DNA of 64,000 bases from Stx2-converting phage Stx2a_F451, in sequence record AP012532; one strand, written 5' to 3'. How positions within the stretch are numbered: position 1 is the first letter of the stretch; each line of letters opens with the position of its first letter. Below are positions 54,001-64,000 of this stretch, in pieces. The position numbers were made by a program.

Positions 54001-57000
54001 ACGGGGGCAGGTATCGCAGGCAGATAAGTATGTTGCCGGGCTACAGGATGTTGCTGCTCTCGGTTCTGGTCAGAAGGCGGATGCGTTACAGAGTTTTAAC
54101 TCTCTGGCAGACAGCAGTCTGGCAAAAGCTAAATCGGATGCACAGGCGGCGTTTACGAAACAGCAGGGGCGAGCCTCTCTTGTTGGCGCTGGTCTGGGTG
54201 CGGCAGGTGCATATGCGATGCATAAGGCTGGCGGTAGCGGAGGAAGTGGCGGTGCTAAAACACCTGGCACCGGCGCTAATGCCATTCAGCATCAGGCTCA
54301 GAACTGGAGACTGTAATTATGGAGTATGGCAAATACGAAACTCTCGCAAGGGCTGGTTATTCAGGAGCAGACCGCCCACAGGGTGACTGGCAGACGTCAG
54401 CAGCGCTGACACGCCAACAATACGACGACTGGCGAACCAGATATTTGCCCCGCGTGGCAAGGCTGGCTGACCTTGGGGAGAACAACAGTCTGATGAATGC
54501 ACAGCTTGCACGGGTGGGAGGCCTTGCCACTTCCAGTCTCCGTACAGCGCAGATGGCGCAGGATAACCAGATGGCGAGATACGGGGTAAACCGCCCGGAT
54601 AATCCCGACAGTAATACGCTGGGGTTACGTAATGCCCTGGCAATTGCTGGCGCGAAAAATGGTATCCGTGAAGCCGAACAGGATCGCCAGATGAATATTC
54701 TGACGGGGGCTTCTGCACCGGCAAGACAGAAACTGAGTGTTGGCGGCCAACTGGTGGCAGCGTAAGGGGGCAATATGGGATACGGTTTACTGGATATTGC
54801 AAATCAGTCGCGGCGTGAGGCATTACAGGGAATAAGTGACGCAGACAGACGACGTGAAGAAATTGAGGCTGCGAACAAACAGATGGCGGCGCAACAGAAA
54901 GCGCAGAACAAGCAGAATATCGGTACGGGCATTGGTACGGGGGCGGCTATTGGCGCATCCGTTGGTGGTCCTGTTGGTGCTGTTGCTGGAGCAGTAATTG
55001 GCGGCATTGCTGGTTCTTTGTTTTAAGGAGTGGTGAATGAGCGGATTTGCACAGGGGTTACTTGCCGGATTCAGCACCGTTGACCAGGCAATGACCCGTC
55101 GTAAGGAGCTTGGTCTGCGTGAAGCACAGCTTGCCCGGCAACAGAAAAATAACGAGCGCGATTTTGAGTTTGCGCAGTCTCAGTTTGAACATAATAAAAA
55201 CGTTGATCAGCGGAACTTTGATTACAGAGCCAAAGTTGACGACCGTAATTATGCACTGAAGGAGAGGGAGTTTAACGCTAACCAGAATTACCGGAATGCG
55301 TCACTGGGTATGGAGCAGCAGCGACTCCAGTTGCAGAAATACAACCAGCGACGGCTTGAGTATAACGATATGATTGCCCATAGCCAGCCACTAATGGAAG
55401 CGCTTGGAAAAGCAATTGAGGCTGGCGATCAGGAGGCTGCAACGCGTCTGTTCGGGCAGCTGCCAAAGGGACATCCATTAATTCTTATGTCAAACGAAGG
55501 CTATGCAGCGAAAGCGGGTCAGGCCGTGATCAACCTGCAAAAAATCTTTGGTGATAAGCCGGACATGGCGATCGATTCGCTGAATACCCCGGAAAATCTC
55601 GATGTGCTTTCCGGCGTGTTTGCCCCGGAACTACAACAGCGTATTGGCATGCCTGATTCAACCGGGGACAAAACGATAAAAGAGGCCAGGATTGGCAGTA
55701 TCGTACCAGCGCAGCAGGAAGGGTACGTACTTATTGGCCTTGATCTCACATACAGCGATGGCTCCACCGCGCATAAACCTGTAACAGAATACGGCAGTGC
55801 GCACCCTGATGATCAAACCGTGCTGGCGATACCCGTTGATAAGGCTATCGCTCAGGTCAGGGATCGCAGCAAATTTGCAGAGATATCGAAAAATTATGGT
55901 TATTTTATGCCGAAGCAGCAGGGACTTTCTCTGAAAGAGCTTCAGAAGGGGGCCAGCAACGTAGCGGCGGACGCGATCAAGAATGGCGGTAATGCTCAGG
56001 CTGCGGTGGATGAATATTATGCTGCGACTGGTTCACAACCGCATCAACAGAAAATTCAGCAACAAAAACTTCAGCAACAGGTTATCAACTGGGCGGGAGA
56101 TGATCCTGACAAGCTGTCATTTGCCAGAAATGTAGCGGCCCGTCAGCCTGAAATGCTGGAACCTCAGAATCAGAAATTGCTGGAGAACGGGTATGCGAAT
56201 TTTCTCCGTATTCAAAAGGCCAGGGGGGAACAGGCCAGAGATGAAAGTGCTTCATCTGCATCTCAGTTTATCCGTGGACTGAAACAGAATTACGCCCAGT
56301 AATTCACGATATTCCATTAATACCATTTCCTGATGCCCGGCCATTGTGCCGGGTTTTTTTATGGAGTCTGTATGGCCTATTCAGAGGAACAGCGTCCTGA
56401 GGCGCAACTCGGTAACCAGAATCGTAACAGCCTGAACATTCAGCAACCCGGCGAAACTGACAGCTATGAAGCATTTTTCTCTGATCCGAATCGCTGGAAG
56501 GATAACAGTACGTCGTTCAGCCTGGGCGATGTATTGCCAACAATGGGTAAAGGTTTCGCCCAGTCCGTCCGGGGAACAGGGGAAATGGCCCGTGGACTCG
56601 GTGATGCGATGATTCAGAGCCCGGTAAAAACAGGGGCGCGTATTTTAAATGAGTTCAGCCGTATGGGGCTGCCGGGTGTCGCAACTGTGCAGGATATTTT
56701 TGCCGGTGGCAGCAGGGGGGCTGATGAGGTCATCGATACCCTGCCTGATGGCAAAAACGCGGTTACTGATATTGTCGGTAAAGGTCTGAAGGCAACCGGT
56801 AAGGCTGTCAGTGATGGTGCCAAAGCCACTGATGAATGGCTGACCGGTAAGATGTCGCCGGGTGCAGTTCGTGCGCTGAATACGCCGATGACCGAAGGCT
56901 ATAATGATTCTGCGGTCTGGGTGGCGAAGGGTGTAAACCTGATTGGTGCGCTTGTACCTGATATGGTTGCTGGCGGTGTGGCTAGAAAGGTGGGTGATGT

Positions 57001-63000: not shown

Positions 63001-64000
63001 TGCCTTTGTTCGTACGCTGGGGAAAGTTAACCGCTTCCTGGCAACGGTGAACACGTCGTATAACCCGGAATTCCTGGTCAGTAACTTCATCCGTGACGTG
63101 CAGACGGCGGTGATGAACCTGAAGGCGGAGCAGGGAAGGAGCGACGGTAAACTGAAAGGGCTGGATAACTTATCCGCCCTGGCTGTGGTGAAAGACAGCC
63201 GTTCTGCCATGTCAGCCGTATACGCCAGTCTGCGTGGTAAAACCCTCACGGGAAAAGGTGCACAGTGGCAGAAGGTGTGGAAAGAGTTTGTTGAGGACGG
63301 AGGGAAAACCGGCTGGTTTAACATGGGTGACCTTGAAGGCCAGCAGAAGGAAATGGATCGCCTTGTCTCACTGGCGAAGGGGGGATGGAAAGGCCAGAGT
63401 ATCGGTGCATGGAATTCGTTCCTTAACCTTGTCGAGGATGCCAACGGTGCGGTTGAAAACGCTCTGCGTCTTTCTGCCTATAAGCACGCCCGTGATGCCG
63501 GTTTGTCACGCCAGCAGGCGGCGTCTCTTGCCAAAAACATGACGGTGAACTTTAACCGTCGTGGTGAGCAGGGGGCGCTGATGAATTCGCTGTACATGTT
63601 CGCCAACGCCAGCATTCAGGGAACGGCAAATCTGGTGAGAACGCTCGGACATCTTAATGGTGAGGGACCTTTACTGGAGCGCCTTCGCTGGAAGAATCTG
63701 AATGTTCCGCAGAAAATCGCGCTTGCCGCTGTGGGAGCAGGTTATCTGCTTGGCTCGCTTAACCGCAGCGTGGCGGGTGAGGATGATGACGGGGTTAACT
63801 GGTATGACAAGGTGCCGTCTCATGTGAAAGAGCGTAACCTCGTCATTATGAAATCGGTGTTCGGGGGCAAGGCCGGAGAGTACTGGAGTATTCCTCTGCC
63901 TTACGGGTACAACGTTTTCTTCCTGCTCGGGCATACTGCTGAAGGTGTGGCGGCGGGTGACCTGACCGCTTCACGTGCTGCCGGTAATGTTGTTGGTGGT

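Follow-up and report, generated by a model that had tools for sequence, protein, structure and literature searches.

Short-tailed phages that carry Shiga toxin (Stx) genes spread these genes among Escherichia coli strains, and two of them have been studied for the very large gene that closes their late operon. In phage Sp5, Mondal et al. (2016; PMC5155283) deleted ORF80 (ECs1242, '2,793 amino acid residues'), which is needed both for plaque formation and for lysogenization and is one of nine essential Sp5 genes; the particles made by the deletion mutant have normal, DNA-filled heads. The same authors suggested that the protein contains an AAA+ domain (COG1483). For phage phi24B, a preprint (bioRxiv 2026, 10.64898/2026.04.10.717836) reports that the corresponding product, gp47, was detected in purified virions and that it contains LPD5, LPD1, LPD38 and MuF-C domains. 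It is absent from the electron cryo-microscopy (cryo-EM) map and model of the virion, and the authors, who infer an internal location from its abundance together with its invisibility in the map, propose that it is an encapsidated ejection protein. Here we describe the orthologous gene of the Stx2-converting phage Stx2a_F451 (AP012532), of which a stretch of 64 000 nt, called the window below, was analysed. The gene probably encodes a large polyvalent protein that is packed in the head and ejected.

The term derives from Iyer et al. (2017; PMC5512222), who defined LPD5, LPD1, MuF_C and LPD38 for 'polyvalent proteins', giant multi-domain proteins that are delivered with DNA by phages and conjugative elements and whose commonest domain is a zincin-like metallopeptidase. 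They describe LPD5 as possibly enzymatic and class MuF_C as a PBECR (barnase/EndoU/colicin-like RNase) fold, not a peptidase. Earlier work has already described the gene and its family and shown that it is essential and that virions contain its product; what is added here is a set of annotation refinements, in which LPD1 is predicted to be the C-terminal half of a first zincin domain (zincin-1), MuF_C is not a peptidase, there is no AAA+ domain, and the protein is built as a scaffold with cassettes. Two published annotations (AAA+ ATPase, and MuF-C as a metallopeptidase) are thus corrected, and the resulting domain map, with two predicted zinc-peptidase domains, an RNase-like domain and a module of ~900 residues that also occurs in podoviruses of Vibrio, Ralstonia, Burkholderia and Bacillus, shows which residues to mutate.

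Identity and extent of the giant gene

The 7.6 kb of the gene that lie in the window are 100 % identical to the corresponding parts of phage 933W, Stx2 converting phage I, Stx2a_F403 and the EDL933 prophage, and the protein encoded there is 97 % identical to phi24B gp47. Counterparts with at least 90 % identity occur in 184 phage records, and 427 of 5426 complete E. coli genomes contain the giant gene. It makes up ~14 % of the genome of a short-tailed Stx phage and closes the late operon, behind the genes for tail fibre and virion proteins. In 933W the gene is named L0134 (ST933Wp72, NP_049532) and annotated as 'LPD5 domain-containing protein'; a literature search found no publication that pairs 933W with L0134.

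A reading of the window made from its sequence alone (the sequence-only reading) had described an uninterrupted, open-ended frame of at least 7.6 kb that begins after a terminator. The 2543 codons from position 56372 were translated without a single stop, and a hairpin followed by a run of Ts does lie just upstream (Table 1). The frame also runs off the window as described, but it is not unbounded: in the identical 933W sequence, which supplies the 3′ part, the stop is found 753 nt beyond the window end, and the full protein has 2793 residues. The ATG at 56372 is preceded, five nt upstream, by GGAG. In the RefSeq and GenBank records the gene begins 39 nt earlier, at ATG 56333, which is inside the stem of the upstream terminator hairpin; we regard ATG 56372 as the more plausible start, since its 2793-residue product agrees in length with PHROG 616 and with the published Sp5 ORF80.

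Older records (AP004402, Min27 and phi24B) split or overlay the giant gene. The record of Stx2 converting phage I places 18 small hypothetical proteins under it, that of Min27 splits it into ORF77 and ORF78, and that of phi24B has three antisense ORFs annotated inside it (6192-9769 of the phi24B stretch compared). These split, overlaid and antisense open reading frames (ORFs) are almost certainly annotation artefacts, because mass spectrometry covers the full chain of the protein.

Two compositional features that the sequence-only reading had picked out, proline-rich linkers and a glycine-rich hydrophobic segment, are both present. Proline reaches 11.4 % at residues 700-900, against 4.7 % in the whole protein, and Gly/Ala-rich hydrophobic segments occur not only at residues 402-425 but also at 180-208, the most hydrophobic segment of the protein, and at 2442-2469. 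The proline-rich linker (58469-59071, + strand) contains repeated LP(A/S)PD-like stretches.

Table 1. Features of the giant gene and its immediate surroundings, with positions in the window
Feature	Position	Strand	Details
Four upstream genes	53585..56302	+	243/218 residues, 148 residues, 83-residue Gly-zipper protein, 421 residues
Terminator-like hairpin and T-run	56335..56361	+	Hairpin 56335-56354; between the 421-residue gene and the giant gene
Shine-Dalgarno sequence and start codon	56363..56374	+	GGAG 56363-56366; ATG 56372 of the giant ORF
Giant ORF	56372..64000	+	Codons 1-2543 of 2793; 933W L0134 (NP_049532), Sp5 ORF80 (ECs1242), orthologue of phi24B gp47
Conserved N-terminal domain (N-domain)	56852..57595	+	Residues 161-408; 29 % identity to Vibrio phage giant proteins; includes residues 180-208
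Gly/Ala-rich hydrophobic segment	57575..57646	+	Residues 402-425; ...IEGAAFGAAMGAPFGAVAG
Low-complexity linker	57689..59491	+	Residues ~440-1040; acidic, Gln- and Pro-rich; no domain detected
LPD5	59522..59971	+	Residues 1051-1200; Pfam E 6e-45
Zincin-1 (predicted)	59984..60691	+	Residues ~1205-1440; gluzincin-like metallopeptidase fold; HEWFH at nt 60221-60235
Zincin-2 (predicted)	60839..61366	+	Residues ~1490-1665; minimal-zincin fold; HEIIHH at nt 61022-61039; E1607 conserved
MuF_C	61619..61888	+	Residues 1750-1839; Pfam E 1e-17
Start of conserved C-terminal module (C-module)	61898..64000	+	~900-950 residues (1843-2793); LPD38 from nt 63797; Gly-rich hydrophobic stretches nt 63695-63778

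Domain organization

The multi-domain polyvalent architecture that had been suspected from the sequence is borne out by Pfam, which identifies LPD5, LPD1 (residues 1361-1440, E 5e-24), MuF_C and LPD38 (residues 2476-2681, E 8e-48), all far above their gathering scores. MuF_C is not the metallopeptidase of the giant protein; the HExxH domains lie elsewhere in the chain. The other assignments that have been made, or that might be made, for a protein of this size and position were examined by the same kinds of search. For an AAA+ ATPase (COG1483) there is no AAA+ match in Pfam or NCBIfam and no Walker A motif ([GA]xxxxGK[ST]), and for a DarB-type protein Pfam finds neither a methylase nor a helicase domain in the 933W protein. 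The sequence-only reading had allowed that domain searches might reveal a routine tail or tape-measure protein; neither Pfam nor PHROGs gives a match of this kind, and the podovirus tail is made of other proteins.

Two predicted metallopeptidase domains

The giant protein contains exactly two HExxH motifs, HEWFH at residue 1284 and HEIIH at residue 1551 (nt 61022-61036), the same two that the sequence-only reading had named as zincin-like. Chance does not account for them: 0.035 such motifs are expected from the composition, and two or more were found in ~0.0002 of 5000 shuffles of the part in the window and in none of the shuffles of the full protein. A search with residues 1200-1720 gave 364 homologues, many of them standalone proteins of 470-900 residues with LPD5 and LPD1, and the best 120 of the 364 were used for the conservation counts that follow.

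Around the first motif, a block of the form AHYE..VINLTK..G.G.LAHEWFHxLDN is invariant in all 103 of the homologues that cover it, down to 45 % identity. It includes a conserved His on the strand before HEWFH (in AHYE) and, three residues beyond the motif, an Asp. In the widespread phage-type metallopeptidase described by Iyer et al. (PMC5512222), strand 2 likewise ends in a conserved His and HExxH is followed by an Asp at a distance of three residues; zincin-1 fits this type. An AlphaFold2 model of residues 1175-1450, built from a 60-sequence alignment (pLDDT 89.3, pTM 0.90), has an N-terminal helix, a three-stranded sheet, the HExxH helix and a later helix, in the canonical zincin order. Two glutamates, E1375 and E1382, each conserved in at least 90 % of homologues, are on model helix 199-217 and within LPD1, and either may be the third zinc ligand, which in gluzincins is a Glu on the next conserved helix. 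Since the later helix with these residues falls inside LPD1, the model indicates that 'LPD1' is the C-terminal half of the zincin-1 peptidase domain. NCBIfam matches only CLCA_X (residues 1182-1437) and at 150 bits, below the cutoff of 260, which is a hint only that zincin-1 and LPD1 are one unit. The best neighbours of the model in the Protein Data Bank (PDB) are the zincins MtfA, Pro-Pro endopeptidase and anthrax lethal factor; the predicted viral structures that resemble it come from other polyvalent proteins and from MuF fusions of the 'head morphogenesis' kind. The presence of Pro-Pro endopeptidases in this list raises the idea, by analogy, that the proline-rich linker at residues ~700-900 might hold self-cleavage sites.

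At the second motif, HExxH is kept in 27 of 31 homologues, and in the alignment H1551, E1552 and H1556 are invariant and E1607 is nearly so. The model of this region has a strand-strand-helix core, as in the minimal-zincin fold, with a downstream Glu; its support is weaker than that of zincin-1. Because H1556 is invariant and the Vibrio phage homologue has HEILAHH at this position, zincin-2 may belong to the HExxxH clade named by Iyer et al. (PMC5512222). Both HExxH motifs are thus predicted by modelling to lie in real zincin folds that are conserved in homologues.

Presence in virions

In the supplementary proteome of phi24B, gp47 accounts for 10,962 spectra, a number that only the capsid protein exceeds. 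In the gel its counts are greatest at the top, in slices higher than that of the portal, and tail off downward. Peptides are found from residue 133 to residue 2701 at similar counts and include the HEWFH active-site peptide GNGPGALAHEWFHSLDNYFGR; the peptide sheet gives total counts and not counts per gel slice. Since the peptides span nearly the entire protein at similar counts and the top slices hold the peak, gp47 is packaged over its whole length, for the most part either intact or as a few large fragments. When length-normalized spectra from the unfractionated sample are scaled to a portal of 12 copies, gp47 is roughly estimated at ~23 copies per virion; the same calibration gives 6 copies of the nozzle, 11 of the adaptor and 22 of the spike, against known values of 6, 12 and 18.

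Relatives in other podoviruses

Giant proteins of several podovirus groups end in a counterpart of the C-terminal ~950 residues. Identity over this C-module is 41 % in Vibrio phages (D75, 3066 residues), 26-27 % in Ralstonia GP4-like phages (UAM5, 4387 residues), 27 % in Burkholderia Bcep22-like phages (BcepMigl gp16, 4658 residues) and 22 % in Bacillus Pagevirus (Pascal, 1672 residues), and in PHROGs, too, the last ~950 residues are common to even larger proteins. In the gene maps of BcepMigl and Pascal the giant gene ends the virion module, just before the lysis genes, and gp69 of Burkholderia phage JC1 (4515 residues) is virion-associated by mass spectrometry (PMC9144972). The Vibrio giant protein also has a counterpart of the N-domain (residues 161-408) and a zincin-2, which there precedes the C-module by ~27 residues; tblastn detected neither LPD5-zincin-1-LPD1 nor MuF_C in it, and a tblastn search of the phage collection did not detect zincin-1 in the Vibrio, Ralstonia or Burkholderia giants. 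Ahead of its C-module the BcepMigl protein (2781-16757 of the stretch compared) carries an N-terminal SLT lytic transglycosylase, an Eco57I-type methylase, a helicase and PBECR1. An SLT transglycosylase domain is also part of T7 gp16, and by this analogy its occurrence in the BcepMigl homologue would support an ejection role for the family. From the shared N-domain, zincin-2 and C-module, and from the cargo upstream that differs among the phages, it follows that the giant protein is a conserved scaffold (N-domain, zincin-2 and the ~900-residue C-module) with exchangeable cassettes.

Probable function

We consider it probable that the giant protein is a large polyvalent internal virion protein of short-tailed Stx phages, packed in the head and ejected, in which effector cassettes are combined with a scaffold. 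On this interpretation ~20 whole copies would lie inside the T=9 head, and on release of the tail needle the protein would most likely exit through the tail with the DNA or ahead of it. The scaffold (N-domain, zincin-2, and the C-module with LPD38 and its Gly-rich hydrophobic stretches) would serve packaging and passage across the envelope, and the cassettes (LPD5 with zincin-1, and MuF_C/PBECR) would be delivered as effectors. The likeliest substrates of the zincins would be the polyprotein itself or, once delivery has taken place, proteins of the host; peptidoglycan is probably not among them. The sequence-only reading had also noted a resemblance to ejected phage proteins, and the phi24B work agrees with it, in that the 97 %-identical gp47 is abundant in virions, is missing from the cryo-EM model, and has been proposed by its authors to be ejected.

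Several points weigh against an ejected internal protein. Particles of the Sp5 ORF80 deletion mutant do not bind anti-tail-fibre antibody, and a role in tail assembly was concluded from this work (PMC5155283). In the giant protein no strongly hydrophobic transmembrane helix was found, the Kyte-Doolittle peak being only 1.38, and Pfam detects no muralytic domain in the 933W protein. A PDB sequence search with the whole protein returned only noise (E ~0.8), with no likeness to a solved ejection protein or to any other entry, and so did a search with a C-module profile that drew on five phage lineages (E at least 0.076). The value of ~20-23 copies is a crude spectral-count estimate, zinc binding and peptide-bond cleavage by zincin-1 and zincin-2 are predicted only, from the models, and exit from the capsid, formation of a conduit and entry into the cell are inferred steps. 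By the PDB sequence and profile searches, the C-module and the N-domain appear to be without a relative among solved structures, and it is there that the open interest of the system lies.

A more elaborate version of the ejected polyvalent protein, which we put forward as a speculation that is more likely to be wrong than right by some distance, would make it both conduit and weapon. In this scheme ~20 copies of a 310-kDa polyprotein would fill part of the T=9 head; the N-domain, zincin-2 and the C-module would form a trans-envelope channel, and the zincins, once inside the cell, would cut at the proline-rich linkers, freeing the LPD5/zincin-1 and PBECR effectors to cleave defence or housekeeping proteins and RNAs of the host. 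If this were true, a lethal-factor-like protease would be injected by a Shiga toxin phage.

Among the alternatives, the protein could be chiefly an anti-defence carrier like P1 DarB, one that protects the incoming DNA against restriction or other immunity and takes no part in the mechanics of DNA entry, but this seems unlikely to us. The polyvalent-protein concept of Iyer et al. (PMC5512222) predicts effectors against host defence, and the Burkholderia homologues, which have methylase and helicase domains, are annotated as DarB-like. The 933W protein has neither of these domains, however, and although residues 2351-2437 match PHROG 10089 ('DarB-like antirestriction'), that match is inside the shared C-module; PADLOC gives no match, and in Sp5 the gene is essential for plaques and for lysogenization. 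By contrast, P1 darB is dispensable on hosts that do not restrict.

According to the phi24B preprint (10.64898/2026.04.10.717836), which calls MuF-C a metallopeptidase and bases its idea of peptidoglycan degradation on it, such an activity would digest peptidoglycan cross-links so that the ejected conduit could cross the wall. It is true that the protein has no other muralytic domain to do this and that, according to Iyer et al. (PMC5512222), some polyvalent proteins have peptidoglycan peptidases. But the preprint assigns the activity to a domain that Iyer et al. treat as an RNase-like PBECR fold, the predicted zincins resemble protein endopeptidases, and zincin-1 went undetected by tblastn in the Vibrio, Ralstonia and Burkholderia giants, so that we find this explanation distinctly improbable.

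That the protein is instead a tail-assembly factor or a structural part of the tail, as Mondal et al. (2016) concluded, we consider very improbable: the failure of DNA-filled mutant heads to bind the tail-fibre antibody and the position of the gene at the close of the late structural operon both favour it, but the phi24B tail is fully built in the cryo-EM model from portal, two adaptors, nozzle, needle and spikes (10.64898/2026.04.10.717836), complete without the abundant gp47, the suggested AAA+ domain lacks support, and the tail might be lost only indirectly, as would happen if its stable attachment depended on an internal protein.

Upstream genes and the remainder of the window

The sequence-only reading had pointed to a run of small Gly/Gln-rich genes of virion type ahead of the giant ORF. 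The products of the four genes listed in Table 1 are indeed Gly/Gln-rich, and their phi24B orthologues (gp51, gp50, an 86-residue protein and gp48) were all detected in purified virions. The spectra number 523 for gp51, 129 for gp50 and 1634 for gp48, which corresponds crudely to tens of copies of each. None of these three is mentioned in the main text of the phi24B cryo-EM preprint (10.64898/2026.04.10.717836). The products of the genes orthologous to them in the window may be further internal or ejection proteins. From its place directly ahead of the giant ORF, the 421-residue gene seems to correspond to ORF79 of Sp5, which is essential. The 83-residue protein (54775-55026, + strand) has a C-terminal Gly-zipper (Pfam Gly-zipper_YMGG, below cutoff) and is called 'bacteriocin' in the 933W annotation; its phi24B orthologue, with 13 spectra in virions, was dismissed as a contaminant owing to that label. 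Lying as it does within a cluster of unplaced virion proteins, the 83-residue protein could be a small membrane-active component of ejection.

The late region of the window is identical to 933W. The early region (1-25000) matches phages of the Stx2a_F403/Min27 type at 99.7-99.9 % from nt 5256 on, rather than 933W, and the first ~5.2 kb match phi24B (aligned from nt 1) and not F403/Min27. Because the early region is of F403/Min27 type while the late region is that of 933W, the window is, by these alignments, a mosaic Stx2a prophage and not 933W itself. Two Rfam matches to sRNA-Xcc1 (3690-3775 and 4226-4315, - strand; 74.5 and 64.3 bits) lie upstream of the point at which the F403/Min27 match starts. 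Other features, which we take to be typical of Stx and lambdoid phages, are found at 22589-22786, 25979-26230, 27636-27895 and 11058-11116: a C4/isrK antisense RNA region; three tRNA genes (Met-type CAT, Arg TCG and Arg TCT); STnc100 and the anti-stx2 small RNA AsxR; and the lambda cIII thermoregulator.

Comparison with known systems

Sp5 ORF80 and phi24B gp47 are the same protein as the one described here, with 2793 residues, 97-100 % identity and a gene that likewise closes the late operon. Our analysis departs from the papers on them in finding no AAA+ domain, in not regarding MuF-C as a metallopeptidase, and in placing the predicted zincins at residues ~1205-1440 and ~1490-1665. With the phage-type polyvalent proteins of Iyer et al. 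it shares LPD5, LPD1, LPD38, MuF_C/PBECR, a zincin metallopeptidase and a late-gene context. The 933W protein is not named in the available text of that paper, and of the commoner effectors given there it lacks ART, methylase/helicase, primase and RNA polymerase domains.

In the Bcep22-like, Ralstonia GP4-like and Vibrio phages the portal, the capsid protein and the head-closure proteins are homologues of the 933W ones, and the giant gene, as in the BcepMigl gene map, is likewise the last of the virion module; the C-module with LPD38 is shared, whereas the cargo upstream of it differs.

The ejection proteins of T7 (gp14, gp15 and gp16) and P22 (gp7, gp16 and gp20) have the same role as the one proposed here, as internal head proteins that exit via the tail and bridge the envelope, and their estimated copy numbers, in the tens, are comparable. 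Unlike them, however, the giant protein is one very large polypeptide with several small neighbours in place of three mid-sized proteins; PDB searches by sequence and by profile reveal no similarity to them, and the phi24B cryo-EM map shows no ordered core.

A further parallel is the virion RNA polymerase of N4, gp50 (~3500 residues), which is likewise giant and packed in a podovirus head, and which is injected. The giant protein differs from it in having no RNA polymerase module, and no match to N4 was found in the phage sequence searches. According to Iyer et al. (PMC5512222), N4 gp50 has in its C-terminal region a zincin-like metallopeptidase, a relative of lethal factor, that is needed for encapsidation, and gp50 enters the head without being processed; zincin-1 also matches lethal factor, and gp47 is mostly found in the top gel slice.

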